Shown here: one piece after another, positions 1-23,279 of the stretch
Position numbering within the stretch: the first letter of the stretch is position 1
Layout of the letters: each line of letters begins with the position of its first letter
NCBI RefSeq assembly: GCF_964355755.1
Contig: NC_092671.1
Span: forward strand, 26,176,070-26,240,069
Reading direction: 5' to 3'
DNA length: 64,000 nt
From: Antedon mediterranea
Lineage: Eukaryota; Animalia; Echinodermata
Notes under the pieces: model-generated
Seen by the model: the letters and a program-made list of their open reading frames with translations, nothing else
Told to the model about the DNA's origin: nothing
The model's database searches: none
Translations under genes and position numbers: made by a program

Positions 1-226
1 AAATAAAATAACATCTTAATAGTACAGCAAAAAGTATTAATGTTTTAATCGGATGTACCACGAGTCCGATTATATATTAATAAATTATCCTGAACATAAA
101 TATTTATTTGTAGTATATTATAATTATTATTAAACTATCTTTGCCTTCTCGTCTAAATAAAATGTATAATCATATTGTAGCAGACTTCATTTGTATTTGG
201 AGAATCCTTGTGATACCAGGGTATTT

Positions 227-282
227 CTAATATTCGAATTCACCATCCATTTCCAGTGCCTCAAGAAGGAGCTCATCGGAGC
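227..282 (-). CDS. Terminal coding exon (GSDELLLEALEMDGEFEY*) of the microexon gene
   Basis: Acceptor TATTTTATTTAATTTAAG, phase-1 entry, TAG at 229-227; AATAAA on the minus strand at 108-103. Confidence 0.7.
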
Positions 283-3200
283 CTTAAATTAAATAAAATA
301 TCTAGTTTGTACAATAATGATAGCAACAATAATTCATTTTAAAATGACCAAAACATAAATGGAACGATGGATTGAATTTTGTTGACCAACTTCTCCGTAA
401 CATTACGGTAGTTTATAATCTTGCCATAACTATCGACCAGCAGGAAATGCCATCGGAACTCCTAAGTTTATTTCTGAGGTTAAAGAAAATTAAACTAAGC
501 TCAAAAAGAATATAAGACAGTCTATATGCTAATTCTATAAAATTAAGAAAATGTAAAATAAGATAATATTAAACATTTATTATGTGTTTAAAGTAAAAAA
601 AAAACAGAACAAAATGTCAAAGATAATGGAAAATGTTATTTTGCTAGACGAGAGGCGATATCTCCATCAATGCATACATTGAAGTAGGTCAACCAAACTT
701 AATCACTCGGCACATTAGTGATATGAAATAGTTAATTATTTAATTTTGCCTATCGAAAGCGGAGTGATATTTTCATACACTTGCTAAATTAAAAAATATG
801 TCTGATAATACCTCCTGCTGCTGCAGTGGTGCTGGCCGCTGCTGTAAAATACAAGAAATATCAGAGTCCAATTATTACAATTAACATTATATGATTTACA
901 ATTCACAACATCTTTTTATGCTTTAAATAAAATTCATTTGCTTAATTACAAATCATGTTTCATAATATAATTACCTGCTGCAGCAGTGGAGCTGCCCGCT
1001 GCTGTAAAATAAAAAAGAATCATGGTCCAATTATAACATTATTTGATATACAATTCATAGTATATTTGTTATGCTTTTGATACATTTGATTTGTTTTATT
1101 ACAAATCATGTTTCCTAATAATTATAATTACGATACCTGCTGTAACAGTGTCGCTTTCATCTTGGAAATTTACTTCTGAAATAGATAAAATATAAATTTG
1201 TAACAACAAATGATATTTTTTTTATATTATTATTTAAAAACAAAACGGGAATCTTGTATATTTTTACCAACAAATTATTGGCCTAACTAAAGGATATCTA
1301 TGTCCTTTTTTTTCTTTTTAGATAAAAATGTTCAATATAAGTATACAACTTCATTATTCATTTTAAATTGTTTTTATTTTTCAAATTTAATTGAAAATTG
1401 AACCGTGCGAATCCAATACGTAATCGTGTCGTCATTTACCTTTGCCGTCTCCTAAAATTAGAAAATAAAAATAATATTAATTTAAATATACAAGTACAGC
1501 TACATTCCCTAGATATATTCCAGACAATATTCCAGAGCGCTATGAGTTAACAAAAGTATCATGTCTTCAACATTCAATAAGTAAGTTTATAACACATTAT
1601 AAGGCCTAAAAAGACTACATATGCGTGATTACAAAATAAGTCTGAAAAATTACCTGCTGCCGCAGTGGTGCTAACCGCTGCTATAAAATACAAGAAATAT
1701 CATAGTCCAATTATTACAATTAACATTATTTGATTTACAATTCATAACATCTTTTTATGCTTTAAATAAAATTCATTTGCTTAATTACAAATCATGTTTC
1801 CATTTGCTTAATTACAAATCATGTTTCATAATAATAATTACCTGCTGCAGCAGTGGAGCTGCCCGCTGCTGTAAAATAAAAAAGAATCATGGTCCAATTA
1901 TAACATTATTTGATATACAATTCATAGCATATTTTGTATGCTTTTGATACATTTGATTTGTTTTATTACAAATCATGTTTCCTAATAATTATAATTACGA
2001 TACCTGCTGTAACAGTGTCGCTTTCACCTTGGAAATTTACTTCTGAAATAGATAAAATATAAATTTGTAACAACAAATGATAGATATTGTTTTTATATTA
2101 CAATTTTAAAAAACAAAACCGGAATCTTGTGTATTTTTACTAGAAATTCATTGGCCTTACTAAAGCATCTATGTAGTTATTTTTTTCTGTTTAGAAAAAA
2201 AAGTTTAATATAAGTAATACAAAATATACTAATACAACTTCATTATTCATTTTAAATTGGTTCTTTTTATAATTTAATTGAAAGTTAAACCGTGCGAATC
2301 CAATACGTAATCGTGTCTTCATTTACCTTTGCCGTCTCCTAAAATTAGAAAATAAAAATAATATTAATTTAAATATACAAGTACAGCTACATTCCGTACA
2401 GATATTCCAGACAATATTCCAGAGCGCTACGAGGTAACAAATATAAGATATCTTTATCATTCAATAAGTACGTTCAGTAAGTTTATAACACATTATAAGG
2501 CCTAAAAAAACTACATAGGCGTGATTACAAAATAAGTCTGAAAAATTACCTGCTGCCGCAGTGGTGCTAACCGCTGCTATAAAATACAAGAAATATCATA
2601 GTCCAATTATTACAATTAACATTATATGATTTACAATTCATAACATCTTTTTATGCTTTAAATAAAATTAATTTGCTTAATTACAAATCATGTTTCATAA
2701 TATAATTACCTGCTGCAGCAGTGGAGCTGCCCGCTGCTGTAAAATAAAAAAGAATCATGGTCCAATTATAACATTATTTGATATACAATTCATAGTATAT
2801 TTTGTATGCTTTTGATACATTTGATTTGTTTTATTACAAATCATGTTTCCTAATAATTATAATTACGATACCTGCTGTAACAGTGTCGCTTTCATCTTGG
2901 AAATTTACTTCTGAAATAGATAAAATATAAATTTGTAACAACAAATGATAGATATTGTTTTTATATTACAATTTTAAAAAACAAAACCGGAATCTTGTGT
3001 ATTTTTACTAGAAATTCATTGGCCTTACTAAAGCATCTATGTAGTTATTTTTTTCTGTTTAGAAAAAAAAGTTTAATATAAGTAATACAAAATATACTAA
3101 TACAACTTCATTATTCATTTTAAATTGGTTCTTTTTATAATTTAATTGAAAGTTAAACCGTGCGAATCCAATACGTAATCGTGTCTTCATTTACCTTTGC

Positions 3201-6200
3201 CGTCTCCTAAAATTAGAAAATAAAAATAATATTAATTTAAATATACAAGTACAGCTACATTCCGTACAGATATTCCAGACAATATTCCAGAGCGCTACGA
3301 GGTAACAAATATAAGATATCTTTATCATTCAATAAGTACGTTCAGTAAGTTTATAACACATTATAAGGCCTAAAAAAACTAGATATGCGTGATTACAAAA
3401 TAAGTCTGAAAAATTACCGGCTGCCGCAGTGCTGCTGACCGCTGCTGTAAAATACAAGAAATATCAGAGTCCAATTATTACAATAACATTATTTGATTTA
3501 CAATTCATATCATCTTTTTATGCTTTAAATAAAATTCATTTGCTTAAAGATGTATTGTCCCTTTGTCAAATTCCAAAAACAAACAAAAAAAGATTTCGAA
3601 AAAAAGTGGGTCATTTTGAAGTATCATAATAGTTATTAATTTTCACCAAAAATTAGTCGGAAAAAAATCATTTAACTGAAATACAGACGTTTTTTTGGTT
3701 CAAAAAATAACTTTGACTTCCAGTCAAAGTTTTCTATCAAAACATATCTCATAATGCAACGCGCTTATTTGGCTACTCTGTATGCATAATCATAAAACTT
3801 CTTCGCGATCTGTGTAAGAACACCTTCTCATCCGTGACGAGTTGTAAATAATCCTAATTAGCATCATGCATAATGTATACTCATGGTTTGAAATCTTTGT
3901 TTATTTTCGCTCGGGACAATTATCCAGATGAAATGTAATCAAATTAATTTAGCTGTTAATTACGTAAATTGTTGTTTTAGGCTCGAATTTACGATTTAAG
4001 ATGAATAACTTTAATATTACTTTGATATTTTATTTAAATTTAGAATATTTTGACCTTCATTTTTTTGTGTTTCAATGGACAATACATCTTTAATTACAAA
4101 TCATGTTTCATAATAATAATTACCTGCTGCAGCAGTGGAGCTGCCCGCTGCTGTAAAATAAAAAAGAATCATGGTCCAATTATAACATTATTTGATATAC
4201 AATTCATAGTATATTTTGTATGCTTTTGATACATTTGATTTGTTTTATTACAAATCATGTTTCCTAATAATTATAATTACGATACCTGCTGTAACAGTGT
4301 CGCTTTCATCTTGGAAATTTACTTCTGAAATAGATAAAATATAAATTTGTAACAACAAATGATAGATATTGTTTTTAGTCGCGTGGACGCGACTCTGTAG
4401 TTCACTATGTCGGTCGGTCGGTCTGTCGGTCTTTCTGTCGGTCCGGTATCACTATGCGTTTTATCGCTTTTCTGTACTTTTTGAACTGTTTTGATGTCAA
4501 CATGTGGGCATTTACGTGAAATTGTGCACTTCTATTGTGAATGACGTTAGAGTTGCGCAACGTGATTTACGCGCGATTTAACGATTTTCTCGTATTTAAC
4601 ATAGGTCAAAAACCAAATAACATTTTAAATTGAAACTTTGCAAAAGTTTAATTTATATCAGGCGCTAACTTTCTGTTGAAAAAAAAAAGGTGTTTTACAC
4701 AAAGTTACGCGTGCACGCGCATTTAAAATTTTAAAATTTGCAAAATTAATTTTTAATCAACTTTCTACGCGTTTCTTGTCATCTTGAGCATGTCAAAAAT
4801 TCCCATACGCGCGCAAATGTTTACGCGCGCGGTGCGCACGTAGCATTAAATACATACTTTTTTCGCGTGATTTATGTTTTTGCAGCCTTTTCTAATAATT
4901 TTACCAACTTTTAAACAATTTCGACTTAAAATTACGTCATACGAGCACGTCGAATTGGATAATTTGCGCACGTTTTCGATGAAAAAATTAAAAAATTCGT
5001 CGAAATTATGCCTTTTTAGTCGCGTGGACGAGACTCTATAGTTCACTATGTCGATCGGTCTGTCTGTCGGTCTGTCGGTCTGTCTGTAGGTCCGGTATCA
5101 TTATGCATTGTAGCACGCGACTTAATGGCTGTTGGCCTTGTTATATTACAATTTTAAAAAACAAAATCGGAATCTTGTGTTTTTTTGCCAGCAATTCATT
5201 AGCCTTACTAAGGCAACTATGTAGTTATTTTTTTGTTTAGAAAAAAAAAGTTTAATATAAGTAATACAAAATAAACTAATACAACTTCATTATTCATTTT
5301 AAATTGGGTTTTTTTTTCAAATTTAATTGAAAGAACCGTGCGAATCCAATACGTAATCGTGTCGTCATTTACCTTTGCCGTCTCCTAAAATTAGAAAATA
5401 AAAATAATATTAATTTAAATATACAAGTACAGCTACATTCCGTACAGATATTCCAGACAATATTCCAGAGCGCTACGAGGTAACAAAAGTATCATGTCTT
5501 TAGCATTCAATAAGTAAGTTTATAACACATTATAAGGCCTAAAAAAACTACATATGCGTAATTACAAAATAGGTCTGAAAAATTACCTGCTGCCGCAGTG
5601 GTGCTGACCGCTGCTGTAAAATACAAGAAATATCATAGTCCAATTATTACAATTAACATTATTTAATTTACAATTCACAACATCTTTTTATGCTTTAAAT
5701 AAAATTCATTTGCTTAATTACAAATCATGTTTCATAATAATAATTACCTGCTGCAGCAGTGGAGCTGCCCGCTGCTGTAAAATAAAAAAGAATCATGGTC
5801 CAATTATAACATTATTTGATATACAATTCATAGTATATTTGTTATGCTTTTGATACATTTGATTTGTTTTATTACAAATCATGTTTCCTAATAATTATAA
5901 TTACGATACCTTCTGTAACAGTGTCGCTTTCATCTTGGAAATTTACTTCTGAAATAGATAAAATATAAATTTGTAACAACAAATGATAGATATTGTTTTT
6001 ATATTACAATTTTAAAAAACAAAACCGTAATCTTGTGTATTTTTACTAGCAATTCATTAGCCTTACTAAAGCATCTATGTAGTTATTTTTTTTCTGTTTA
6101 GAAAAGAAAAGTTTAATATAAGTAATACAAAATATACTAATACAACTTCATTATCCATTTTAAATTGGTTTTTTTTTTCAAATTTAATTGAAAGTTGAAT

Positions 6201-9200
6201 CGTGCGAATCCAATACGTAATTGTGTCGTCATTTACCTTTGCCGTCTCCTAAAATTAGAAAATAAAAATAATATTAATTTAAATATACAAGTACAGCTAC
6301 ATTCACTAGAGATATTCCAGACAATATTCCAGAGCGCTACGAGGTAACAAAAGTATCATGGCTTTAGCATTCAATAAGTAAGTTTATAACACATTATAAG
6401 GCCTAAAAAAACTACATATGCGTAATTACAAAATAGGTCTGAAAAATTACCTGCTGCCGCAGTGGTGCTGGCCGCTGCTGTAAAATACAAGAAATATCAT
6501 AGTCCAATTATTACAATTAACATTATATGATTTACAATTCACAACATCTTTTTATGCTTTAAATAAAATTCATTTGCTTAATTACAAATCATGTTTCATA
6601 ATATAATTACCTGCTGCAGCAGTGGAGCTGCCCGCTGCTGTAAAATAAAAAAGAATCATGGTCCAATTATAACATTATTTGATATACAATTCATAGTATA
6701 TTTGTTATGCTTTTGATACATTTGATTTGTTTTATTACAAATCATGTTTCCTAATAATTATAATTACGATACCTGCTGTAACAGTGTCGCTTTCATCTTG
6801 GAAATTTACTTCTGAAATAGATAAAATATAAATTTGTAACAACAAATGATAGATATTGTTTTTAGTCGCGTGGACGCGACTCTGTAGTTCACTATGTCGG
6901 TCGGTCGGTCTGTCGGTCTGTCTGTCGGTCCGGTATCACTATGCGTTTTATCGCTTTTCTGTACTTTTTGAACTGTTTTGATGTCAACATGTGGGCATTT
7001 ACGTGAAATTGTGCACTTCTATTGTGAATGACGTTAGAGTTGCGCAACGTGATTTACGCGCGATTTAACGATTTTCTCGTATTTAACATAGGTCAAAAAC
7101 CAAATAACATTTTAAATTGAAACTTTGCAAAAGTTTAATTTATATCAGGCGCTAACTTTCTGTTGAAAAAAAAAAGGTGTTACACAAAGTTACGCGTGCA
7201 CGCGCATTTAAAATTTTAAAATTTGCAAAATTAATTTTTAATCAACTTTCTACGCGTTTCTTGTCATCTTGAGCATGTCAAAAATTCCCATACGCGCGCA
7301 AATGTTTACGCGCGCGGTGCGCACGTAGCATTAAATACATACTTTTTTCGCGTGATTTATGTTTTTGCAGCCTTTTCTAATAATTTTACCAACTTTTAAA
7401 CAATTTCGACTTAAAATTACGTCATACGAGCACGTCGAATTGGATAATTTGCGCACGTTTTCGATGAAAAAGTTAAAAAATTCGTCGAAATTATGCCTTT
7501 TTAGTCGCGTGGACGCGACTCTATAGTTCACTATGTCGGTCGGTCTGTCTGTCGGTCTGTCGGTCTGTCTGTAGGTCCGGTATCATTATGCATTGTAGCA
7601 CGCGACTTAATGGCTGTTGGCCTTGTTATATTACAATTTTAAAAAACAAAATCGGAATCTTGTGTTTTTTTGCCAGCAATTCATTAGCCTTACTAAAGCA
7701 TCTATGTAGTTATTTTTTTGTTTAGAAAAAAAAAAGTTTAATATAAGTAATACAAAATAAACTAATACAACTTCATTATTCATTTTAAATTGTTTTTTTT
7801 TCAAATTTAATTGAAAGTTGAACCGTGCGAATCCAATACGTAATCGTGTCGTCATTTACCTTTGCCGTCTCCTAAAATTAGAAAATAAAAATAATATTAA
7901 TTTAAATATACAAGTACAGCTAAATTCCCTAGATATATTCCAGACAATATTCCAGAGCGCTATGAGGTAACAAAAGTATCATGCCTTCAACATTCAATAA
8001 GTAAGTTTATAACACATTATAAGGCCTACAAAAACTAGATATGCGTAATAACAAAATAAGTTTGAAAAATTACCTGCTGCCGCAGTGGTGCTAACCGCTG
8101 CTGTAAAATACAAGAAATATCATAGTCCAATTATTACAATTAACATTATTTGATTTACAATTCACAACATCTTTTTATGCTTTAAATAAAATTCATTTGC
8201 TTAATTACAAATCATGTTTCATAATAATAATTACCTGCTGCAGCAGTGGAGCTGCCCGCTGCTGTAAAATAAAAAAGAATCATGGTCCAATTATAACATT
8301 ATTTGATATACAATTCATAGCATATTTTGTATGCTTTTGATACATATGATTTGTTTTATTACAAATCATGTTTCCTAATAATTATAATTACGATACCTGC
8401 TGTAACAGTGTCGCTTTCATCTTGGAAATTTACTTCTGAAATAGATAAAATATAAATTTGTAACAACAAATGATAGATATTGTTTTTATATTACAATTTT
8501 AAAAAACAAAACCGGAATCTTGTGTATTTTTAATAGAAATTCATTGGCCTTACTAAAGCATCTATGTAGTTATTTTTTTCTATTTAGAAAAAAAAGTTTA
8601 ATATAAGTAATACAAAATATACTAATACAACTTCATTATTCATTTTAAATTGGTTCTTTTTATAATTTAATTGAAAGTTAAACCGTGCGAATCCAATACG
8701 TAATCGTGTCTTCATTTACCTTTGCCGTCTCCTAAAATTAGAAAATAAAAATAATATTAATTTAAATATACAAGTACAGCTACATTCCGTACAGATATTC
8801 CAGACAATATTCCAGAGCGCTACGAGGTAACAAATATAAGATATCTTTATCATTCAATAAGTACGTTCAGTAAGTTTATAACACATTATAAGGCCTAAAA
8901 AACCTAGATATGCGTGATTACAAAATAAGTCTGAAAAATTACCTGCTGCCGCAGTGGTGCTGACCGCTGCTGTAAAATACAAGAAATATCAGAGTCCAAT
9001 TATTACAATAACATTATTTGATTTACAATTCATCATCTTTTTATGCTTTAAATAAAATTCATTTGCTTAAAGATGTATTGTCCCTTTGTCAAATTCCAAA
9101 AACAAACAAAAAAAGATTTCGAAAAAAAGTGGGTCATTTTGAAGTATCATAATAGTTATTAATTTTCACCAAAAATTAGTCGGAAAAAAATCATTTAACT

Positions 9201-12200
9201 GAAATACAGACGTTTTTTTTTTGTTCTAAAAATAACTTTGACTTCCAGTCAAAGTTTTCTATCAAAACATATCTCATAATGCAACGCGCTTATTTGGCTA
9301 CTCTGTATGCATAATCATAAAACTTCTTCGCGATCTGTGTAAGAACACCTTCTCATCCGTGACGAGTTGTAAATAATCCTAATTAGCATCATGCATAATG
9401 TATACTCATGGTTTGAAATCTTTGTTTACTTTCGCTCGGGACAATTATCCAGATGAAATGTAATCAAATTAATTTAGCTGTTAATTACGTAAATTGTTGT
9501 TTTAGGCTCGAATTTACGACTTAAGATGAATAACTTTAATATTACTTTGATATTTTATTTAAATTTAGAATATTTTGACCTTCATTTTTTTGTGTTTCAA
9601 TGGACAATACATCTTTAATTACAAATCATGTTTCATAATAATAATTACCTGCTGCAGCAGTGGAGCTGCCCGCTGCTGTAAAATAAAAAAGAATCATGGT
9701 CCAATTATAACATTATTTGATATACAATTCATAGTATATTTGTTATGCTTTTGATACATTTGATTTGTTTTATTACAAATCAGGTTTCCTAATAATTATA
9801 ATTACGATACCTGCTGTAACAGTGTCGCTTTCATCTTGGAAATTTACTTCTGAAATAGATAAAATATAAATTTGTAACAACAAATGATAGATATTGTTTT
9901 TATATTACAATTTTAATAGATAGATATTTATTTATATTACAATTTAACAAAAATCTCTTAATCATCGGAACTTATTTCCATTGTTCAGTTTTTATATTAC
10001 AGTTTTAAGAAACACATATGTAAAGTATCGATATTGACATAACCCCCACTTATTTAAGCGGTAAAGCAGAACGAGCATTGTGAAAACTGTGATGCAGAAC
10101 TTTTTCATAATGTTGTTCGTAAGATAGGAATGGGATAAATTTTAAACTTGGAGCTACTACTAATAAAACCTTCCTACTACATATTGCAGTCATTTTGTAT
10201 GGATGCGTTCATTAGAAAATTGTGTATGACAAACAATCTCTCTTACAATATAAATGATATAATCGTACATACCGAGTTTGTACCTTGCCTCTGTATTATA
10301 CTCAGCAGCTAAAAAATAAATGAACAACCGATTCTCAGTTCTGTGTATATATTTGTATAATTATAATATTCTCCGTCATCTTAGGCAAATTCCGTAATAC
10401 CGCATCAAATGTGTATCATATATGGTGCCCGTATTATGAAAGGTTAAATTAATTAGGTTAGGGTATATGATACATGTGTTACATATGAAACATATGTGAT
10501 CCTGTATCACGGAAGTTGCCTATACTTGTATTGATCCAATTAGTTAGTTACTGTTGCTTAGGCCTATACCAAAATAGGTGTTTATTTCTGTATTTTATAG
10601 GCATGGAATAATTTGCATATCACCTGAAATATTCTCATGTAATGAAATATTTTTCCAAAGGAAAATATTCTGAGTGAACAAACTGATTTTTTTAGGAAAT
10701 GAATTGATAGACATTATCTATTAATACATCTTCTAGTCTAGATCATACAGTATATCGATTTTCTTAAAGCAATATTCCAGAGAACAAAAACAAAAATAAT
10801 GATATTCTCAGCCCGCGATTATGTTCGTACATAAATTGGGGACTCATTGTGTGAAAGCATAGATTAATGAATAGATGGATACGTGTCAACGGTGTGTTGA
10901 ACCGTGAAATGTACAAAAAGTCACATTTGTGCAAACAACCACATTTATGCAAACATGGCACCCTAATTATGTACAAATCTGTAAAAATGTATAATCCACT
11001 AATGAGCAAACATCACGCCGTTAAATGTAAAAAACGATCAGTATTGACGTTAAATGTGCAAATGAAATTCTATAAAGGGTTTTTCAATCAAAATCGTTTA
11101 TTAACAAGGCAGTCGCGTGCTCAAGTTAGTGTTTACCGACCGACCGACCAACCGACCGACATAGTAAGCTGTAGAAAAATGATAACCTAATTCTAAACAG
11201 TCACGGGTTTTTCTAACAATGTTGTTAAGATATAGCCACTTACATATTTAATTATACCACAGGCTGAAATAATCTGTTTTGGAAAAAAAAAATACAATCA
11301 TGTTCGGGAATGCAAGACTGACACGTGATCGCTGCTTGCTGGAGATGATAATCCATACCGTTGGAATTTTTTTTTAAATCAGAATTAACATCAAAACGTA
11401 CTCAAGTAGAAATCGTATGTCTGATTGGTCTATTGACATGTTTGCGTCGAGGATTAATTAACAACAAGATATTGCTGAACAATTATTTTAAATTTCATCC
11501 AAATCGGACTACAAAAGCTCATTTTCTTACGACCGTAATTTTAAGTAGTTAAAAAATAATATGCAATTTTCATATTTGAATTATCTTATTGTTCCGAAAC
11601 CTCCGAAAATTAAATTATAGAATATTAAATCATGCATTCGATCATGAAAATGATGTTCGAAACAAATTATATTCCGGCACAGAGAATGAAATGACAAAAT
11701 GTTATTCCAAAAGACTTGAATGGTATCCCGTGAGAACAGAATAGTGTTCCGAGAGAACGAAAATCTATTCCGAAAGAATGGAATGGTATTCCGTGAGAAC
11801 AGAATAGTGTTAAGAGAGAATGGTATTCCGAAATGTTATTCTGTTAGAACAGAATCGAGTTACTAGAGAACGAACAGATAATCCGAACGAACAGAATAGT
11901 TTTCCGAGAGAACGAAGTGATATTTCGAAAGAATTGAATGGTATTCTGTGAGAACAGAAAAAATGTTACTAAAGAAAGGAGTGATATTACGAAAGAACGG
12001 AATGGAATTGGAAGTCCATGAGAACAGAATAGAGTTACGAGAGAGCAAAGTATTATTCCGAACGAACGGAAAGGTATTCCGTGAGAACTGAAATTGTTAT
12101 ATGAGAGAACGAAATGATATTCCCAGGAAAAAGAACGGAATATTATTCCTATTGCATGAGAACGAATGTGTTACGAGAGTGCGAAGTATTATTCCGAAAG

Positions 12201-13431
12201 AACGGAAAGGTATTCCGTGAGAACTGAATATTGTTATGCGAGAGAACGAAATGATATTCCCAGGGAAAAGAACGGAATATTATTCCTATTCCATGAGAAC
12301 GGATAGTGTTACGAGAGAGCAAAGTATTATTCCGAAAGAACGGAAAGGTATTCCGTGAAAACTGAATATTGTTTTACGAGAGAACGAAATGATATTCCCG
12401 AGAAAAAGAACGTTATGTTATTCCAAAAGACTGGAATGGTATTCCGTGAGAACAGAATAGTGTTAAGAGAGAACGGAATGATATTCCGAAATGTTATTCT
12501 GTTAGAACAGAATCGAGTTACTAGAGAACGAAGAGATAATCCGAACGAACAGAATAGTTTTCCGAGAGAACGAAGTGATATTTCGAAAGAATTGAATGGT
12601 ATTCTGTGAGAACAGAAACAATGTTACTAAAGAAAGGAGTGATATTACGAAAGAACGGAATGGAATTGGTAGTCCATGAGAACAGAATAGTGTTACAAGA
12701 GAGCAAAGTATTATTCCGAACGAACGGAAAGGTATTCCGTAAGAACTGAATATTGTTATACGAGAGAACGAAATGATATTTCCAAAAAAAAAAAGAATGG
12801 AATATTATTCCTATTCCATGAGAACGGATAGTGTTACGAGAGTGCGAAGTGATATTCCGAAAGAACGGAATAGTATTCCGTGAAAAATGAATATTGTTTT
12901 ACAAGAGAACGAAATGATATTCCCGAGAAAAGGAACGGAATGGTATTCCGTGAGAACAGAATAATGTTACGAGAGGACGAATTGAAATTCCAACAGAACC
13001 GAATGGCATTCGTGAGAACAGAATAGTGCACCGAGAGAACGAAAAGAAACTCCGAAAGAACGGAAGGGTTTTCTGTGAGAACAGAATAATTATTATAGTG
13101 TTCCGAGAGAACCAACCAAATTAATTCCAAAAGAACTGAATGATATTTCTAGGGAACGGAAGATATTTGGATCAATTAATATTGAAAACATAATGTTTCT
13201 ATTGACAAATACAATGATACGGAATAATGATAGATGAAATCTATATTTTAGATGAAAATGTCTTCATAGAGATATAAAAGAAACGTTTGAGCTTCAATAA
13301 AAAGATGACGTGTATTCTTAAATATAGCTTTAGCTTAAATATTGAACTTATTACTTGCCTTTCATAAACGGTTTGGCGAATACCATTGACATAAATGTCG
13401 CCGTAATCAGGATTACCTTGAAACAAATCAT
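227..13431 (-). CDS. Microexon gene encoding a predicted 331-aa secreted Ala/Ser/Thr-rich acidic tandem-repeat protein (34 coding exons)
   Basis: Exons in transcription order: 13431-13359, 10308-10273, 9849-9811, 9675-9649, 8969-8943, 8731-8720, 8435-8397, 8261-8235, 8100-8074, 7871-7860, 6811-6773, 6637-6611, 6477-6451, 6248-6237, 5948-5910, 5774-5748, 5613-5587, 5384-5373, 4324-4286, 4150-4124, 3444-3418, 3206-3195, 2910-2872, 2736-2710, 2576-2550, 2338-2327, 2042-2004, 1868-1842, 1680-1654, 1451-1440, 1175-1137, 1001-975, 841-812, 282-227. Every internal exon has a T-rich tract+AG acceptor and a G|GTA donor, a length divisible by 3, and phase 1. Total 996 nt, no internal stop: MICFKVILITATFMSMVFAKPFMK-AAEYNTEARYKL-[EVNFQDESDTVTA AAGSSTAAA AAVSTTAAA GDGK]x7 (minor variants)-EVNFQDESDTVTA AAGSSTAAA AAASTTAAAG-GSDELLLEALEMDGEFEY*. 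Confidence 0.85.
3548..4089. mobile_element. Kolobok-type MITE (542 bp), intronic
   Basis: 13-bp TIR AGATGTATTGTCC...GGACAATACATCT; TTAA duplicated on both sides; sibling units show the empty site CATTTGCTTAATTACAAATC. TTAA TSD with RR..YY termini is the Kolobok signature. Confidence 0.85.
4375..5140 (+). mobile_element. Helentron-associated non-autonomous element (HINE/DINE-1-like), long composite form, intronic
   Basis: Inserted in a T run without clear TSD; 5' AGTCGCGTGGACGCGACT hairpin, (GTCG/GTCT)n microsatellite, 3' sub-terminal inverted repeat CACGCGACT and small terminal stem GGCTGTTGGCC; empty site in sibling units. Confidence 0.8.
6862..7625 (+). mobile_element. HINE-like element, second copy at the equivalent intronic site
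   Basis: Near-identical to 4375-5140 with the same flanks. Confidence 0.8.
9071..9614. mobile_element. Kolobok-type MITE, second copy at the equivalent intronic site
   Basis: Near-identical to 3548-4089, with the same TIRs and TTAA TSD. Confidence 0.85.
10273..10308 (-). CDS. 36-nt phase-1 exon (AAEYNTEARYKL) of the microexon gene
   Basis: TTTATTTTTTAG|CTGCTG...AACTCG|GTATGT; links the signal exon in frame to the first 39-nt exon. Confidence 0.75.
11104..11178 (-). mobile_element. Degenerate short HINE-like fragment
   Basis: AGTCGCGTGC and (CCGA)n tract, reverse complement of the family seen at 18969-19076. Confidence 0.55.
11690..13160. repeat. Degenerate ~20-22-bp minisatellite (GAGAACAGAATAGTGTTCC / AAGAACGGAATGGTATTCC) with higher-order duplication, inside the GC-AG intron
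   Basis: Recurrent motif; blocks ~11780-12200 and ~12435-12860 repeat at about 658-bp offset (the paired spurious ORFs 11863 and 12521). Confidence 0.9.
13359..13431 (-). CDS. First coding exon of the microexon gene: signal peptide MICFKVILITATFMSMVFA|KPFMK
   Basis: Acceptor TTTTTTTTTTATAG (AG at 13438-13437), then AAACC ATG, a hydrophobic core and a VFA cleavage motif; ends AAAG|GCAAGT (GC donor, phase 1). Confidence 0.8.
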
Positions 13432-14032
13432 GGTTTCTATAAAAAAAAAATATATATATATATATGTAACACACCTTGGTATATTCTTGTCATTTTATTG
13501 GAGGGTTGTGGGTCATATGATATTATATAAATGCACTATTTTCCTTTTTTTAAATTTTTACTAGTTCTGTACTTTTCTGTTATTTTTTCTTTTATTTTTA
13601 TCAAACACATTTCCAACGGTATTAATTTTCTTTTATGAATATTGGACAATACAAGTTTTTGAATTTTTAATAGAGTTTATTCAATGTATTATGGTTCAAT
13701 TTAACTATTTATCTTTTTTTTTCTTAATATAAGTTAAATATAACATCTGCTTATCTTTCCTATTCAATGTTTAATTTAATTGTTGATATATAATATATGT
13801 TGGTGGACAATACATTACACTAATTGATGTTATATTTGCTTATAGAAACATTTGATTTAATACTCTTGATTTTAGATGAAAATGTGTATGTTTTTAGCTA
13901 TAATTGTACTGTATGATAAATACCATCTTTTACCGTAAGTATATCGTGAAAATGCTTACTGAAATTAGAATATGCAAAAAAAAAAAAAGAAGAAAAATTT
14001 TCAAAAAGTATAATTAAAATTAGGTTACTTAC

Positions 14033-14102
14033 CACTCTAGTAATAATTGCTAGCCGTCTACTTTGAAATCCGGTTGAGTGTGATTGAAAAACATAATTTA
14101 TA
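14033..14102 (-). promoter_or_regulatory. Candidate TATA box and short non-coding first exon of the microexon gene
   Basis: TATAAA (minus) at 14102-14097 and a strong donor GTG|GTAAGT at 14033/14032. The ATG exon has an acceptor, so an upstream exon is expected. Confidence 0.45.
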
Positions 14103-14631
14103 AAGATAAATCATCAAATCGGATCACGATCTATTGATCACAATTCTGGGACAAATTATTTTGACCTGGGGAAACAAATTTGTTTTCACTATAAAATCAC
14201 TTATTTCTCACTAGAAATATTTAATAATAGTTATACTAGGCTATATTTATAGAGAAATAATGATTATTAACATACATCAATTTTGACAAATATACATTTT
14301 TGTAAAATGTTTCAAAGTATATATAAGACATAAACCATACAGCAAAAAAATGGTATATTCGTATTGTTGATCTATCGATTATGTTAGCGTTACGTATATC
14401 AACTTATCAATATCATGGATCAAACGTGTATTTGATACTTTAAACTCGATCGATCCCTATTACGCAATTTCCTAAATATTCCATAATTAAATATTGTAAA
14501 GAAGACAATGCACCTGTCTATTTACACGCCTACAACAACGGAGAGACAAATACCGAAAGTTATAGTCAGGAGACGAGAAACTGCAGATTCAAAGAATTTA
14601 TTTTTTGTATACAACGTATCGTACGAGTATC

Positions 14632-15663
14632 GGGTGCATCAATATGCGTTAACAGTATGTCCAGGGACGGGTGCAGCAATACGCCTTAACGGTATGTCCA
14701 GGGACGGGTGCAGCAATACGCCTTAACAGTATGTCCAGGGACGGGTGCAGCAATACGCCTTAACAGTATGTCCAGGGACGGGTGTAGTATACGCTTCAAC
14801 AGAATGTCCACGGACGGATGCAGCAATACGCTTTAACATTATATCCAGGGACGGGTTCAGAAATACGCTTTAACAGTATGTCCAGCAGGGATGGGTGCAG
14901 CAATACGCTTTAACATTATGTCCAGGGACGGGTGCAGCAATACGCTTTAACAGTATGTCCAGAGACGGGTGCAGCAATACGCTTCAACAGTATGTCCAGG
15001 GGATGGGTGCAGCAATACGCCTTAACAGTATGTCCAGGGACGGGTGTAGTATACGCTTCAACAATATGTCCAGGGATGGATGCAGCAATACGCTTTAACA
15101 GTATGTCAAGGGATGGATGCAGCAATACGCTTTAACAGTATGTCCAGGGATGGGTGCAGCAACACGCTTTAACAGTATGTCCAGCAGGGACGGGTGTAGT
15201 ATACGCTTCAACAGTATTTCCAGGGATGGATGCAGCAATACGCTTTAACATTATGTCCAGGGACGGGTGCAGCAATACGCTTTAACAGTATGTCCAGCAG
15301 GGACGGATGTAGTATACGCTTCAACAATATGTCCAGGGACGGGTGCAGCAATACGCTTTAACATTATGTCCAGGGACGGGTGCAGCAATACGCTTTAACA
15401 TTATGTCCAGGGACGGGTGCAGCAATACGCTTTAACAGTATGTTTAGGGACGGGTGCAGCAATACGCTTTAACAGTATGTCCAGCAGGGACGGGTGTAGT
15501 ATACGCTTGAACGGGTGCAGCAATACGCTTCAACAGTATGTTCAGGAGGAACGGGTGCAGCAATACGTGTCAACAGTATGTCCAGCAGGGATGGGTGCAG
15601 CAATACGCTTCAACAGTATGTCCAGGGTCGGGTGCAGCCATACGCTTTAACAGTATGTCCAGG
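14632..15663. repeat. 37-bp GC-rich minisatellite (TAACAGTATGTCCAGGGACGGGTGCAGCAATACGCYT), roughly 27 copies
   Basis: Direct tandem periodicity with 36- and 40-bp variants. Confidence 0.95.
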
Positions 15664-15799
15664 AACCAATTTCCTATTACATCAAAACAATATGTATTAT
15701 AACTAGATGATAACTACTAAGTGAGATAATAAATGAATAGAAAATTGCAAAATGTAAAACAGCCAGACAAATTTGCATTTTATATGATGTTTGTGATAT

Positions 15800-16018
15800 G
15801 ATATACTGAAATTTAATTAATTAATTTGAAACGATAAAGATGAGGAAATCTGTGAGAATGAGAAAATGTCACCCCAACCGAGACTCGAACTCGGACCGCC
15901 TGCTTGATATGCAGATGTCCTAACCATTAGACCACTGGGGCTTTCATGGTATTGTTCAAACTCGATTGGATAGCGCCTCTCTAACATTCTCGGCGTGGTA
16001 CGGCGGAACATCACTAGT
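15800..16018 (-). mobile_element. Dispersed repeat with an internal tRNA-like module (tRNA-like part 15941-15870)
   Basis: Same family as 40973-41295, 42700-42960 and 56032-56310; A box TGGTCTAATGG, B box GAGTTCGAGTC. Confidence 0.75.
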
Positions 16019-16058: not shown

Positions 16059-16824
16059 TTAGTCGCGTGGACGCGACTCTATAGTTCACTATGTCGGTCG
16101 GTCGGTCGGTCTGTCGGTCTGTCGGTCTGTCGGTCTGTCTGTCGGTCCGGTATCACTATGCGTTTTATCGCTTTTCTGTACTTTTTGATGTCAACATGTG
16201 GGCATTTACGTGAAATTGTGCACCTCCTATTGTGAATGACGTTAGAGTTGCGCAACGTGATTTACGCGCGATTTAACGATTTTCTCGTATTTAACAAAAA
16301 CCAAATAACATTTTAAATTGAAACTTTGCAAAAGTTTAATTTATATCAGGCGCTAACTTTCTGTTGAAAAAAAAATTTGTTTTACACAAAGTTACGCGCG
16401 CACGTGCATTTAAAATTTTAAAATGCGCAAAATTAATTTTTAATCAACTTTCTACGCGTTTCTTGTCATTTTGAGCATGTCAAAACTTCCCATATGCGCG
16501 CAAATTTTTACGCGCGCGGTGCGCACGTAGCGTTAAATACATACTTTTTTCGCGTGATTTATGTTTTTGCAGCCTTTTCTAATAATTTTACTAACTTTTA
16601 AACAATTTCGACTTAAAATTACGTCATACGAGCACGTCGAATTGGATAATTGGCGCACGTTTTTGATGAAAAAGTTCAAAAATTCGTCAAAATTATGCCT
16701 TTTTATAGACTCTATAGTTCACTATGTCGGTCGGTCTGTCTGTCGGTCTGTCGGTCTGTCGGTCTGTCTGTCGGTCCGGTATCACTATGCATTGTAGCAC
16801 GCGACTTAATGGCTGTTAGCCTTG
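16059..16824 (+). mobile_element. HINE-like element, third long copy
   Basis: Homologous to 4375-5140; the internal second hairpin is deleted near 16705. Confidence 0.8.
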
Positions 16825-16984
16825 TTTATTTTCATTCTAAAATTGTTTATATCTCTACCAAGCTACCTTCTTTGTTTTCTACTCTTATTCAGTCTCCACT
16901 GAATAAGAGATATAAACAATTTTGGAATGAAAATAAAAAAACAGCTTAACTTAAATTGAAATTTTGGTAGTCAATGCAATAATT

Positions 16985-17560
16985 TTACCGATCTGGGAGT
17001 ATGTTCCTAATGTTAAGTCCAAAAGGTTTTGTGGTTTTAAGTTGTAATTCCAAGTGGTTTTCTTTGTCTTTGCGAGTTTTGTCGCTCCATTTGACATCGT
17101 GGTCTATTGCAATAACTCTGAAATTTGCAATCGAGTGACCAGCTGAATTAAAATGTTCGGCTACAGGTTGATCAAGCTTTAATGTTTTGATAGATGATCT
17201 GTGTTGTGTCATTTTCATACGGAGAGTATTTTTTTGTTTCCCCGACGTACTGTTTGCCACATATATTACAGTATATGAGATAAATGACGTTTTTGGTTAG
17301 ACAATTAATTGATTATCTTATCTGAAAAATGCGGCCAGTTTGGTTACTCTTAAATGTTTCAGTAGAATCAACCAATGAAAAGGATTTGCTGCAAAGGTGA
17401 CTACTCAAATTGTGGCTGTCATGAGAGTTAATTTCACTCTTAAGTTTGGATCTGACTAATCTATCACGAAGGTTGGGAGGTCTACGAAATCCAATATTGT
17501 GTGGTTCCGGAAAAACAGTCCTGAGACGTTCTGTGGACTGTATATATATGCACATGTTTC
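16985..17560 (-). mobile_element. Penelope-like retroelement 3' fragment (GIY-YIG endonuclease pseudogene)
   Basis: Frameshifted FRRPPNLRDRLVRSKL ... NVIYLIYCNICGKQYVG ... PVAEHFNSAGHS ... LKTTKPFGLN, typical of the PLE linker and GIY-YIG domain. Confidence 0.88.
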
Positions 17561-18077
17561 TTGCATGTGAGATTTAAAATGATAAATTTAACATGATGGA
17601 AATAAAAGTGGGATGAACCCACAACAAACAAAACAAATACACTATTGTCAATAAGCCAATAAGATGCTATAAAACATAGGCCTAAATAAACTTTCTTAAA
17701 AGATAAGCTAATTAAGATAATAATTTATGTTGGTATATAGGTATACATACTTGAAATTTGAATTGTTGACACATCACAGTAAAATAAAATATACAGACAT
17801 AAATAAGAAGAACAAATTAAGAATACAATTTTTAAAATTCAATTTGTTTTAAAAGTTAATCACTTCCATAGGAAACAAACGAAAACAAAATAGACAAAAG
17901 AAAAAGACAAAATCAACGATTTAATTTAACCAAAAACCATTAGCTAGCAGCCAATTTAAATAATGTTTTGTTATAATTTACAGTTTATAGGTAAATGTTG
18001 TTTTTTTCTCAATCTTATCCTTGGTCAAAGTGAATACCTATTACTTGACTATAAAATTGCATAATTATTCAGCAATT

Positions 18078-18152
18078 TTTATTCGCGTTCAAACGCGACT
18101 CTGTAGCTCACTATGTCGATTGGTTGGTCGGTCGGTCTATTGGTCGGTCGGT
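18078..18152 (+). mobile_element. Degenerate HINE 5' fragment
   Basis: TTTTTATTCGCGTTCAAACGCGACTCTGTAGCTCACTATGTCG followed by (GGTC)n. Confidence 0.55.
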
Positions 18153-18968
18153 AGGGGCAATAAGGTGCAGTCGATTTTCGAAATAAATGATGTATGTAAA
18201 GTGTAAATGTATAAAAGTATTGGTATCCATATTTCAAAAGCAATTGATATCCATCGCCATCTATATTATACGAAAGACTTTGTACATCTGTTTGTTAATT
18301 TTGAGATACTTTTTCAATTCCATGTAAGTGTTATATTTATTATCAACTTATGTATGTGCAGGTGAGTTTCCATAGTTTATGTAGTATAAGTGTATGTCTA
18401 TTTTATGTTACTGGATTTTAAGATACATTTGTAAATCGAGGATTAAACGCATTAGTTCCTGCCATAGGCACCTCAGCGATACGTTTTATTATTTCACATT
18501 ATATACTACTGACAGTGAGTTCTTAAGTCTTGTTCACACTGGACTTGAAAAATAGAAAACATTTTACAACCAATGTAATTTAAGCTTTGTTCGCAGTAGA
18601 TTTGAAAAATGGTAAATTCAACCACGGTAGCTTTACCCAATGTCATCATAAGAAGCTTTACCCAATGTCATCATCAGAAGCTTTGACAAAAATTTTTAAA
18701 AATATGTTATTAATCCATAGCCTACTTGTATTTATTCGCATCAGGTATACGTCATAAATAGTTTATTTGATGCGCCCTCTAGACGAAGCATTTCAGCATA
18801 CAAAAATGGTTTGAATTTTGTTTGCTACTTTCCATGTTCTATGTGGCATTCACACATTGCATAAGCTCTAGAAAACTAGACAACTTTTATGTAACATGAA
18901 TCCTCTATTCTTCTATAGCTTCTCAATTTTGAATCTGAACATTTCGGACATTTTGTATGCCTACGTTT

Positions 18969-20003: not shown

Positions 20004-20471
20004 GATAATGACAATAACAATGACAATGACAATGATTCTTTATTTCTTTAACGACCCTTTTCAGTGTATGAAAGAACATTCTTTCAATCTTGAACAGAAA
20101 CAAACTAAACACTTAGCTAAGTTTGATAGTTTTTTTTTTGATCTGGTATTAAGTAATTGGTACATTTGGGTTCTATTTGGGCGGGTGATATAACACTTTT
20201 GAATGTATATTTGGCGCATGGGAGCAAGTAAGGGGCAAATAAATAAATAGTGGTATTCGTCTCCAGTATCGTTTTGGTTACATAAAGTACATTTGGTTTC
20301 GTGTTCATTAGGCCTACTGTATCTTTTAGAGATTGAAAGTTGATGATTCCCACATCTGAACCTGCAGAGATCAATCCTTTCATTATATTTTAGTAAAATT
20401 AATGACTGTTCGAATACTAAAACATCCTTTTGATTTTGATACAGTGGCAGACATCGACATGGTGCATCCAA
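20004..20471 (-). mobile_element. 5'-truncated non-LTR retrotransposon (ORF2 C-terminus with CCHC-type motif)
   Basis: LCRFRCGNHQL...CTLCNQNDTGDEYHYLFICP; followed on the minus strand by AATAAA and a (CATTGT)n tail. Confidence 0.85.
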
Positions 20472-20584
20472 AATTACTAGAAATAAAATACAACATTATA
20501 TATTGGTTACTATTAGTTAACATTAAGTAAAATTATAATATTATATAAAACAAACAATTTAAACTTATCTTTAGTTAGTTGGTA

Positions 20585-20824: not shown

Positions 20825-23279
20825 ATATTGTTTACAACAACAAAATTAAAATGTGTCCATTACATTTGCTATGCATTTTTAGGCATTTATATATTAATTG
20901 TATTTTTTGTGTAATAATTAATATAATAAATTATGTCTATGTTGACATTGACAAAACTGTAAAGAGGGATGAGTTTCCTATACCAATTCTAAATGTATGA
21001 TTATGCTTCCAAAATATTTGATTTACATAAATATTATATTTTAGTGGCAAAATGATGTGTGTACAGTGTATTAATTACTAACTCATAGATTATAATGCAA
21101 CGTAACTATTTCACATTTTATTTTGATACCAAAGAATCATCTTCCATATGTAGGCGATGTAGGTTATTTCACCATGGGAAATTAAACAATCGATCTTTTT
21201 GGTAGTCTATGCGTAAAATCCGCTGAACAATGTTGACATAATACAGCAAAATATTCACATTGTTCAAGCGAGCGATTATCACAAGCGATTAGGTACAAAA
21301 GTGCGAATTCGCCACTTTATCTTTATCGATCGAGACGGCCTTTTATAATGGGTGTGTTTCTCCGTTTAGTTTATCTTGTTTGTCGGATTATTCTTAAGCC
21401 GGATAGAACGCCATTGTCTGATATTGATGGAATCGACTAAGCGTTGAATAGATTTATATTTTTCCGAAGGACGCCTATCAACCACAAACAAAAAAAAATA
21501 ACGTGGAAAATTATGGAGGCCATGACGTATATTGGGGTAAAAAATATGAATGATAAATATTTAAATTTCAAGACATTCTAAAAGGAAGACGACGAAGCAT
21601 TGGTTTTTCTCGAAAGATTCAGTGATATTGGAAAGTTATTTCGTACAATTTAGCAGTATTAGTAGAAACAAACTTAAGCTCCCAATGTCTATTTTCACCG
21701 TCATATGATACTTCATGATGTGATTACTTGATAATCTAGTGATTTGAAATGTTGATATGCCAGTGTTAAATTACAGGTCTGCAACATTAACATGTCTGAT
21801 ACACTATTCAATTTGTATTCATACAAATGTTAGTAATTAATTGAACCATACAAGACGTCATTAGGCAATACTTAATAATATCCGTAATATAATAATATAA
21901 AACAAACTCCGAATAAGTGAGGCAAGCCATTAGGATTCAATGTTTCAAACTTTATATGTTCAGCTTTCGAATAAAGTTCAAATATAGGCTATGGGGCATG
22001 GCCTTCTATCGTTTCATTTCGTGATCCCCTATCGGGGGGGAGAATAAAATTGCTATGACAATTATAACAAAAATATAGATAACCTTAAACTGGCCGGTCC
22101 CGCTTGTAAATTTTACGCGTCAACGAAATATGTTTGTTTTTATATGTATTTTATTGCGATATAGAAGATTTTTGTAGGTCAGTACAGGTCGCACAATTGA
22201 CCAATCAAAAAATTTGTCTTTTAACTCATGGAGCTGTGCAACAGTAACTGTCCAATCAGATTCCCTTACACAGCGGGATACGGCTACTAGACGATCGTAA
22301 ACAAACATGTGTTGTTCTTCTGGAGCGCGGAGCAGGAAGATGTCATCTTCTGATGATCAAAAACGTTGTTATTGACACAATACATCTAATTCTGGGACAA
22401 TATTAACATTCACAGAAACCAAATGGAAAACTTTTTTAATGTGTACAAAAAGTTGGTGCAATCTAAGCGGCAATCAAAAGGAGTTTTGTAGCCGCAGAGG
22501 AGCTTACCAATACTTGTTACCAATTCCTGGCGACGCTGGATGTCATAAAAAGATGCTATCAATATTTCACTGATTGTAGCAAACAAAGGCGAGCAGTAAA
22601 ATATGAAATAGAGGATGTTAATTCATCCAACAATGAAGAAGGTAAATTCTATTTGTTTTAATGATAGGTCTAGCCTAGGCTAGGCCCCTACTAAGTAGAC
22701 CTACTAGGCCTAGTAATTAGTTCATATCATACTGCCTTGCTAAAAAAAGCCTAGCTAGGTAGGTTGGCGGTGGGTAGTCTACAAAGTTTATTTTTTTAAT
22801 ATGTATTAAGCCTACGTAGAGTAGGCTAGGCCTAGTATATAATTTTTTTTAAATATCTGGGCCAACAAAAAATGAACCCATAATTACAATATGAATTAGG
22901 CCTAGCTAGGGTGGCCCCCAGTATTATTGTGTAGTGGACCTAGTTTGATGGTACCCCCATCTTGGGAAAAAACATTTGCATTTTATTATTCAATGTGGTA
23001 ATGCATGCAAACCTTGGCAAGTAGCCTCAGGCAAGGACAGAATGGACCAACCTGATACTTTGTGTTGTTATTTGAGACATATTATTTGAATTCTTGTACT
23101 GCAATATTAAATAGTGTATAGATGATACTGAACTGATTATATTATTATATTTATTACACAAACATTTAGAATCATAAATATTATTAGTATTCTTTTTTTT
23201 TACAGAAGAATTTCAAGGATTAGAGTCAACAGAAGAGTTACTAAACGAAGGAGAGTTCTGCGATCACATGTAGCAATTA

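Follow-up and report, generated by a model that had tools for sequence, protein, structure and literature searches.

Can a tandem series of exons, some only 12 nt long, form a working gene, and if so what would its protein do? The question is raised by positions 812-9849 of the window, the 64-kb stretch of DNA analysed here, where an earlier note had described a 35-residue repeat encoded one module per exon. The repeat is real, as exons, splice sites, one open frame and the joints in run X1 agree on it. On the minus strand we observed 31 micro-exons in the order ABCD seven times and then ABC, making up eight units of ~0.86 kb genomic length:

8720-9849, minus strand: unit 1, with A 9811-9849, B 9649-9675, C 8943-8969, D 8720-8731
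7860-8435, minus strand: unit 2, with A 8397-8435, B 8235-8261, C 8074-8100, D 7860-7871
6237-6811, minus strand: unit 3, with A 6773-6811, B 6611-6637, C 6451-6477 (Val>Ala), D 6237-6248
5373-5948, minus strand: unit 4, with A 5910-5948 (Ala>Glu), B 5748-5774, C 5587-5613, D 5373-5384
3195-4324, minus strand: unit 5, with A 4286-4324, B 4124-4150, C 3418-3444 (Thr>Ser), D 3195-3206
2327-2910, minus strand: unit 6, with A 2872-2910, B 2710-2736, C 2550-2576, D 2327-2338
1440-2042, minus strand: unit 7, with A 2004-2042 (Asp>Gly), B 1842-1868, C 1654-1680, D 1440-1451
812-1175, minus strand: unit 8, no D, with A 1137-1175, B 975-1001, C 812-841 (30 nt); joints 1001/1137 and 841/975 in run X1

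Exon A is 39 nt long (n = 8), B 27 nt (n = 8) and D 12 nt (n = 7), while exon C has 27 nt in seven copies and 30 nt in the last. An AG acceptor and a GT donor flank 31/31 exons, and every one has a length divisible by three, phase 1 at both ends and no indel or stop. The uninterrupted coding sequence per exon amounts to just 4-13 residues, and once spliced together one frame contains no stop, compared with 8 and 11 in the other two. The GC content is 0.57 in the exons versus 0.26 in the introns. The interval is a spliced animal gene: eight tandem cassettes that together hold 31 symmetric micro-exons. The repeat described earlier therefore stands as eight units, but these are not all identical and the last one (unit 8) lacks the hinge exon D. 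A blastn-short search found no paralogous cassette outside the array in the window.

Run X1 was taken as RNA, a status deduced from its joints; at 32383-32597 it covers exon sequence only and so behaves as RNA. Runs X2-X4 are DNA. The X1 contigs contain CT..AC joints at 281/811, 841/975 and 1001/1137, and at a loose end at 1177 three contigs (agreement 1) read exon D and then exon C. The splice order given by this one RNA run is A-B, B-C, C-D-A, and from the last C to the terminal exon. None of the array joints seen in X1 is present in X2-X4. Within X1 the depth of the A-B joint is 3.5 times that of the last joint. In the DNA runs the contig depth at the unit 8 A-B segment is 6.6-7.7 times that of unique flank, a ratio in line with eight units, with the proviso that depth is not copy number and that the three runs represent one sample. 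Skipping of the 12-nt exon D, which had been envisaged earlier, did not appear in the X1 contigs on 1-1640, where rare skipping could escape, as this is a single run and contigs drop rare variants.

At its 3′ end the array is spliced to an exon encoding an acidic 18-residue tail with a Leu-rich patch:

120-282, minus strand: terminal exon, stop at 227-229, 3′ UTR to at least 120; joint 281/811 and a 165-nt X1 contig on 120-284
103-108, minus strand: candidate polyadenylation signal AATAAA, a sequence motif lying beyond the X1 contigs

Two further candidate exons, at ~440-480 and 690-770, were rejected, both being inside the 283-811 intron seen in X1. For the 5′ end we identified the following:

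13359-13436, minus strand: candidate first coding exon, with acceptor, 5 nt of UTR, ATG at 13431 and 24 codons
10273-10308, minus strand: possible extra exon of 36 nt, phase 1-1, between the signal exon and unit 1, from a splice-site scan with hand-set weights

The candidate first exon encodes a signal peptide, predicted at 19 residues, and then five more residues, the last of which is Lys; it ends in a phase-1 GC donor (AAG/gcaagt). No other ATG exon in 9850-31250 looks like a signal exon on the minus strand. A strict signal-exon rule, set after this candidate had already been seen, gave 0 matches in 83 kb of real control sequence and a match in 2/40 shuffles. Read in another frame, 13337-13417 had no Pfam match. 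We infer that exon 13359-13436 belongs to the array gene. Simulation placed a direct signal-to-A join at the loose end at 1177, where the X1 row shows D-C letters only; a contig with this join would align by only 28 letters, making the row weak counter-evidence. Inclusion of the putative 36-nt exon keeps the frame open, and its GC content is 0.44 versus 0.31 in the flank.

The six-cysteine, orexin-like precursor encoded at 31.3-47.3 kb belongs to a different gene. A link between the array and its signal-peptide/six-cysteine exon at 32383-32595 was rejected, because in an X1 contig that exon is joined on one side to 31340, with a stop ~22 codons further on, and on the other side to a 5′ exon at ~47256.

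The locus also retains its own duplication history. Mean intron distances between units are 1.5-7.8%, and a two-unit block of 2.5 kb has 96.7% identity to the neighbouring block. The array has reached its present size through recent duplications of blocks of one and two units. The B-C intron of unit 1 carries an insertion of ~540 nt (about 9070-9612) that is found again in the B-C intron of unit 5 (3548-4080, 98.9% identical by blastn). A second kind of insertion sits in two of the D-A introns:

6863-7629, unstranded: 767-nt interspersed element bearing GTCG-type repeats at each of its ends; lies in the D-A intron that separates units 2 and 3
4376-5142, unstranded: the 767-nt element again, here in the D-A intron that separates units 4 and 5, 99.2% identical to 6863-7629

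A free copy of this element at 16060-16826 is 89.6% identical. Compared with 300 shuffles, the cassettes resemble one another strongly (A/B z 13, B/C z 15), and 15 of the last 19 nt of exon A match B, so that its 3′ part is the B/C module over again, for the third time in the unit. A, B and C are exons of common descent, and the unit thus comprises three Ser-x-Thr modules nine residues apart and a Lys hinge. The earlier note had counted two Ala-Ser/Thr modules and let exon boundaries coincide with modules; B and C are such modules and the boundaries agree roughly, but the third copy lies within exon A. Exon B arose in a duplication that combined pieces of the A cassette with pieces of the C cassette, and the shared insertions mark the block duplications that came later.

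The model protein has 319 residues, or 331 with the optional exon 10273-10308, both including the candidate signal exon, and 831 of its 960 coding nt (87%) are array micro-exons. The mature model has a pI of 4.05 and contains 30% Ala, 13% Thr, 11% Ser (Ser+Thr 24%) and 15% Asp+Glu; the model has no Cys, no N-glycan sites and no Ser-Gly sites. Our recount of the canonical 35-residue unit (11 Ala, 5 Thr and 4 Ser, 3 Asp and 2 Glu, 1 Lys, no Cys or Pro) gave the composition reported before. Ser-x-Thr occurs three times per unit at a spacing of nine residues in 8/8 units, and one Gln and one Lys per unit are invariant across all copies. By charge-hydropathy the repeats fall just on the folded side (H 0.497 versus a boundary of 0.455), which leaves disorder of the repeats without support.

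We hypothesise that the array mRNA encodes a likely secreted, acidic, Ala/Ser/Thr-rich protein of ~320 residues that is likely O-glycosylated and contributes, in the manner of a mucin, to mucus, jelly, an adhesive or the extracellular matrix, and give this a probability of about one half. In such a protein the signal exon 13359-13436 would direct the repeats to secretion, the 24 Ser-x-Thr modules would carry O-linked sugars, and the acidic heads and tail would bind Ca2+ or cationic partners. As all array exons are phase 1 and multiples of three, unequal crossing-over, and possibly exon skipping, would vary the length of the protein and keep the frame. Among the functions proposed earlier, a glycosylated mucus, adhesive or matrix protein is the best fit, given the candidate signal exon, the acidity, the 24% Ser+Thr and a gene design like that of the schistosome mucin SmPoMuc. 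As to the phosphorylated variant of that proposal, the repeats contain no kinase consensus and the single S-x-E sits in the tail. Typical mucins contain Pro, and its lack in the repeats is a point against a mucin-like protein. The AFGPs described in PMC11687183 illustrate that O-glycosylation of Thr among Ala residues does not require Pro.

Alternatively, the product could belong to the matrix of a mineralised skeleton as a secreted acidic protein, a tentative reading that we consider unlikely, in which Asp/Glu clusters in the heads and tail would bind Ca2+ and direct the growth of CaCO3, the Ala/Thr modules serving to space them. The pI of 4.05, the 15% Asp+Glu and the acidic C-terminal tail with its single S-x-E would suit this role, and the repeat protein resembles mineral matrix proteins as they are characterised in PMC4336488, namely as secreted, repetitive and of low complexity; the neighbouring gene, moreover, is a hint that the DNA comes from an echinoderm. 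However, just 5/35 residues are acidic, there is no poly-Asp, the canonical repeat contains no Fam20C or CK2 sites, the model has no lectin domain, and four motifs had no match in 4 text files from the supplement of a genome/proteome paper on an echinoderm (PMC7351957).

It is rather improbable that the protein is a polyprotein cut after each lone Lys into seven acidic peptides of 33-34 residues, possibly amidated from the terminal Gly, with the 12-nt exon as a site switch. G-K occurs seven times, once per full unit, and a direct join of the signal exon to A would put a Lys ahead of the first head too, in which case 8/8 heads would follow one. The sea-urchin speract precursor is reportedly processed at single Lys, and by the usual monobasic rule a lone basic residue needs an upstream basic helper. 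The echinoderm precursors of amidated peptides covered in PMC6586643 accept monobasic sites, and the array shares with them a candidate signal peptide, tandem copies and a Gly before the basic residue in 7/8 units; it differs in that each copy is split over four exons, the lone Lys precedes Glu, dibasic or Arg sites are absent and Asp stands at the would-be amidated end. Every Lys lacks a basic residue in the eight positions before it (7/7), the model has 0 dibasic, 0 furin and 0 G-R sites, the product would end in Asp-amide and lack a hydrophobic motif at its C terminus, Lys is missing from the last unit, and X1 gave no sign of D-skipping. Cleavage at G-K, as once suggested, is therefore possible but weak.

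A cross-linked structural polymer, comparable to elastin-like or cement proteins, is more doubtful still; here transglutaminase would join the Gln and Lys of each unit, or lysyl oxidase would act on the Lys, and the Ala runs would be cohesive. It would account for the single invariant Gln and Lys of each unit, yet in so young an array the invariance is expected anyway. The Lys directly follows an Ala run, but the longest such runs are 5-6 residues and there are no Pro/Gly elastic segments. The phase-1 module exons recall tropoelastin, which has phase-1 exons of one module each. Small symmetric exons with one compositional module each encode several secreted low-complexity proteins, among them tropoelastin, caseins/SCPP and Xenopus integumentary mucin FIM-B.1, although SCPP introns are phase 0 and those of the array phase 1. 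We know of no sequence likeness between the array and any of these.

That the transcript yields no functional protein, the array being a by-product of tandem duplication, is very unlikely. The start codon is not tied to the array, and variable sites (7/105 in exons versus 95/723 in introns, p 0.079) reveal no significant excess of exon conservation, with 4/7 of the exon changes altering the residue. Against this, 31/31 exons are intact, GC content is 0.57 versus 0.26, a single open frame runs into a terminal exon with a stop, and even the 12-nt exon is spliced accurately. Least probable of all is the ice-binding protein once proposed, which would form either helices as in fish type I AFP or a beta-solenoid carrying a ladder of Thr: no residues are commoner than Ala and Thr in this repetitive protein, Thr recurs at lags 9 (0.41) and 18 (0.36) and each unit has one T-x-T, yet compared with the type I AFPs (Ala >50%, Thr every 11 residues, absent in snailfish forms) and AFGPs (4-50 tandem Ala-Ala-Thr tripeptides) of PMC11687183, Ala reaches only 11/35 per unit and 30% of the mature model, Thr-Thr recurrence is 0.00 at lag 11 with 0 matches to T-x10-T-x10-T, two tandem Ala-Ala-Thr occur at 0 places, the period is 9/35 rather than 11 or 3, the heads are acidic, and three Gly per unit would break a helix.

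The mucin-like protein that we favour would be one of many lineage-specific secreted repeat proteins, and its function is probably unremarkable among them. A clean spliced micro-exon gene in a marine invertebrate that is probably free-living would show that this design arose independently of flatworm parasites. Gene finders that miss 12-39-nt exons would overlook such genes, and mucus, adhesive and skeletal proteomes may consequently lack them. The four motifs had no match in a full-text literature search, in 7 supplementary files of PMC9793003 or in the 4 files of PMC7351957, and the exact 30-nt exon A pattern had 0 matches in metagenome contigs; in both cases relatives may still exist.

The closest comparison is with the SmPoMuc genes of Schistosoma mansoni, which, according to PMC2576457, form a multigene family encoding glycosylated proteins with a signal peptide, repeats containing Ser, Thr and Pro whose number varies among individuals, and a 234-aa C-terminal domain. 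There a 27-bp exon encodes each 9-residue repeat, the units are ~1 kb long, the introns are >93% identical, and one intron feature is a hammerhead ribozyme. The array likewise has a candidate signal peptide followed by tandem repeats, 27-nt exons B and C for 9-residue Ser/Thr modules, an acidic pI and ~0.86-kb exon and intron units with introns differing by 1.5-7.8%. It differs in having four micro-exon types per unit instead of one, no Pro in its repeats and an 18-residue tail in one exon rather than a 234-residue domain; in 1-16000 we found no hammerhead ribozyme, the sole match being tRNA-like. The micro-exon genes (MEGs) are also similar, being composed mostly of symmetric micro-exons and presented, in PMC4350168 and bioRxiv 10.1101/2023.06.21.545858, as a platyhelminth-restricted device of flatworm parasites for varying secreted proteins, with 10-20 distinct micro-exons and variants made by exon skipping. 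In the array 87% of the model coding region lies in 12-39-nt symmetric exons and secretion is predicted from the candidate signal exon, but its 31 exons are copies of four types, no skipping was seen (X1 contigs, 1-1640) and the host, judged by the neighbouring gene, is probably no platyhelminth. It is conceivable, though unlikely, that the array is a diversifying gene of this style outside flatworms, the host probably being an echinoderm, in which crossing-over and exon choice among four-micro-exon cassettes would set the number of glycan modules and the 12-nt exon would toggle a Lys cleavage or cross-link site, yielding individual-specific secreted glycoproteins or peptides. Taken together, the array gene appears to be built like the SmPoMuc and MEG genes, a likeness of design.

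Pattern scans placed 31 exons on the minus strand, running from 9849 to 812 as seven ABCD units and a final ABC, in AT-rich animal DNA with a GC content of 0.26-0.44 per kb.

Exon A, minus strand: 39 nt
Exon B, minus strand: 27 nt
Exon C, minus strand: 27 nt, 30 nt in the last unit
Exon D, minus strand: 12 nt

All 31 exons are bounded by an AG acceptor and a GT donor, and phase 1-1 is kept throughout. The introns measure 133-288 nt, except for four that carry insertions (two of 679 nt and two of 1048 nt). Spliced by these coordinates the array has one frame free of stops, compared with 8 and 11 in the others, and the GC content of its exons is 0.57 against 0.26 in the introns. The residue composition given for the 35-residue repeat in the earlier note proved correct on recount, and the repeat itself was confirmed and then extended by the splicing evidence.

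To follow splicing, contigs of four of the five runs from one organism that contain 1-850, one RNA-like (X1) and three of DNA (X2-X4), were aligned to 1-1640. X1 contigs break at 1001/1137 (A-B), 841/975 (B-C) and 281/811 (last C to the terminal exon), all three reading CT..AC, which is GT-AG on the minus strand; none of these joints occurs in the X2-X4 contigs on 1-1640. At 1177 a loose end in three X1 contigs gives the letters of exon D and then exon C, closing the cycle C-D-A with the 12-nt exon included. The array is spliced A-B-C-D-A and into the terminal exon.

282 to at least 120, minus strand: terminal exon, defined by joint 281/811; codes for an acidic tail of 18 residues that includes a Leu patch; stop at 227-229

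No exon-skipping joint is found among the joints listed for X1 contigs on 1-1640, from which rare forms would drop out. An unspliced X1 contig that spans the last intron (255-840) has a depth of 72, where the terminal exon reaches 1119, and is pre-mRNA or intron retention. Elsewhere, around 32383-32595, X1 covers the exon and not its flanking introns, and our guess is that X1 is an RNA run. Contigs of X2 and X3 contain joints that jump back about 825 nt, as a tandem array predicts, so it is no assembly artefact; X2-X4 are one sample, possibly the source of the window itself.

A signal-peptide exon at 32383-32595 was rejected as the first exon of the array, as its X1 contig runs into other exons instead, downstream to one at 31340, with a stop after about 22 codons, and upstream to one at about 47256. 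This leaves 9850-31250 as the stretch in which the repeat gene must begin, and a single ATG exon there passes a simple signal-peptide rule.

13359-13436, minus strand: candidate signal exon
10273-10308, minus strand: possible extra exon of 36 nt, an in-frame link from signal exon to array

The rule was drawn up after the candidate had been seen; its loose form gave 2 matches in 83 kb of real control DNA and a match in 4 of 40 shuffles, its strict form 0 and 2 of 40. The candidate has a T-rich acceptor 5 nt ahead of the ATG, and the predicted peptide has an n-region Lys and a hydrophobic core and would be cleaved after residue 19, at a Val-x-Ala site. Its donor is GC, in phase 1 with full consensus, predicting a GC-AG intron. 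The join to the array is in frame both directly (319 aa) and via 10273-10308 (331 aa). A simulated contig of the direct join falls in the loose-end row at 1177, where the rows listed hold D-C letters only; this speaks weakly against a direct join, as such a contig would align by just 28 letters. We infer that 13359-13436 is the first coding exon of the repeat gene. Two tandem repeats lie upstream of unit 1. One, at 11718-13090 and within the predicted first intron, is a degenerate 21/133-nt array whose purine skew is strong; the other, at 14631-15663, is a satellite with 28 copies of a 37-nt unit.

The mature model comprises 300 aa (28 kDa, pI 4.05), with 30% Ala, 13% Thr, 11% Ser and no Cys, and a scan for N-glycosylation, Ser-Gly, dibasic and furin motifs found none. 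Each unit has three Ser-x-Thr, nine residues apart, which makes 24 in all, and residue identity recurs at 0.33 for lag 9 and 0.96 for lag 35. By charge-hydropathy the repeat is not classed as disordered, and it may have a regular fold. We favour, with a probability of about 0.5, an O-glycan scaffold that would be a hydrated component of mucus, jelly, adhesive or matrix. In such a secreted, acidic, Cys-free chain the regular Ser/Thr clusters between Ala runs would hold O-glycans, the acidic heads that start each unit and the tail could bind Ca2+, and the symmetric phase-1 exons would permit length changes without a frameshift. Of the readings proposed earlier, the glycosylated mucus, adhesive or matrix protein is the preferred one. 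The same anatomy, with emphasis shifted to the acidic clusters, would suit a skeletal matrix protein, which we consider unlikely. Somewhat less probable again is a polyprotein cut at Gly-Lys, another earlier suggestion, which we rate as weak: the pair is present in 7/8 units, and a Lys would precede the first head too under direct signal-to-A splicing, but cleavage at a lone basic residue usually needs a basic helper and every site here is a lone Lys before Glu with none, and the product would end in Asp-amide. A cross-linked structural protein could make use of the single Gln and single Lys in each unit, though we think this improbable. Ice binding, also raised earlier, is very improbable, with 30% Ala against more than 50% in the fish criterion, no Thr recurrence at lag 11 and no tandem Ala-Ala-Thr (criteria from the available part of PMC11687183).

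Against 300 shuffles, the cassettes A/B (z 13.3) and B/C (z 15.5) are alike far above chance, A/C only weakly (z 3.0, under the best shuffle), and D is unrelated. Given also the 84% identity between A-B and B-C introns, exon B likely arose when a stretch reaching from the end of A across the intron into C was duplicated; the Ser-x-Thr periodicity of the protein follows from the likeness of these cassettes in DNA. The four-exon unit multiplied recently, after exon B arose, since introns diverge by 1.5-7.8% between units, 4090-6581 and 6578-9070 are 96.7% identical, and two insertions were copied along with their units (99.2% and 98.9% identity). Variable sites number 7/105 in exons and 95/723 in introns (p 0.079), and 4/7 exon changes are non-synonymous. 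What suggests selection on the protein is that its frames and splice sites are intact; the substitution counts do not suggest it. Interspersed elements are also present.

4376-5142, 6863-7629, 16060-16826: full copies of an element that has a GTCG-type microsatellite at either end
38493-38621, 18076-18155: fragments of the same element

We take this element to be reminiscent of helitron-associated MITEs. A tRNA-like Rfam match at 15870-15941 (minus) is apparently the leading part of a repeated SINE; by eye, similar stretches lie near 41100, 42770 and 56130. At 22320-24340 (plus), two broken ORFs (155 and 113 aa) have the look of a DNA-transposon gene in decay, Cys-rich at one end; a Pfam search gave no match. 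Fragments at 16985-17573, 20061-20495 and 28695-29066 (all minus) resemble, by eye, non-LTR retroelement 3′ ends, GIY-YIG-like and RT-tail-like.

A separate gene was recovered from the X1 contig.

47256-(about 47420), 32383-32595, 31340-(about 31272), minus strand: six-cysteine precursor gene

Its predicted product is a secreted precursor of about 93 residues, with a signal peptide, a six-cysteine peptide spaced C-1-C-3-C-7-C-1-C-6-C, four Arg and a short tail. Six cysteines are described as an ambulacrarian feature of orexin-type peptides. For the crinoid peptide, one residue between the first two Cys is reported (C-1-C-7-C-5-C-1-C-6-C; PMC9793003). These likenesses make an echinoderm host, perhaps a crinoid, a fair guess. 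The cysteine count and C-x-C start are shared, whereas a Gly before the basic site is absent. Database searches with the precursor gave no orexin match, and Atlas returned weak LRRNT leads (0.79-0.88), making an LRRNT-like cap an alternative lead. Should the host be a crinoid, for which one orexin-like gene is reported, this might be a second.

Secreted proteins with one module per exon are known in vertebrates, so the design of the repeat gene is not categorically new. The repeat motifs had no match in the searched text of papers, in supplements (PMC9793003, PMC7351957) or in metagenome contigs; figures or further supplements may still carry the sequence. Like MEGs, the gene has most of its coding model (87%) in small symmetric exons, which is their structural definition in the text available; no exon skipping is seen among the joints listed for X1 contigs on 1-1640. 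MEGs are described as platyhelminth-restricted in the available parts of PMC4350168 and bioRxiv 10.1101/2023.06.21.545858, and full-text literature searches listed no genes of this design outside flatworms. SmPoMuc genes, in the available part of PMC2576457, combine a signal peptide, a 27-bp exon encoding a 9-residue repeat in units of about 1 kb, introns more than 93% identical, and a glycosylated product of pI 4.3-5. Compared with that account our gene has no Pro in its repeats, an 18-residue tail and no hammerhead ribozyme (Rfam scan of 1-16000), and is not a member. By layout, SmPoMuc as described there is the nearest design to the repeat gene.
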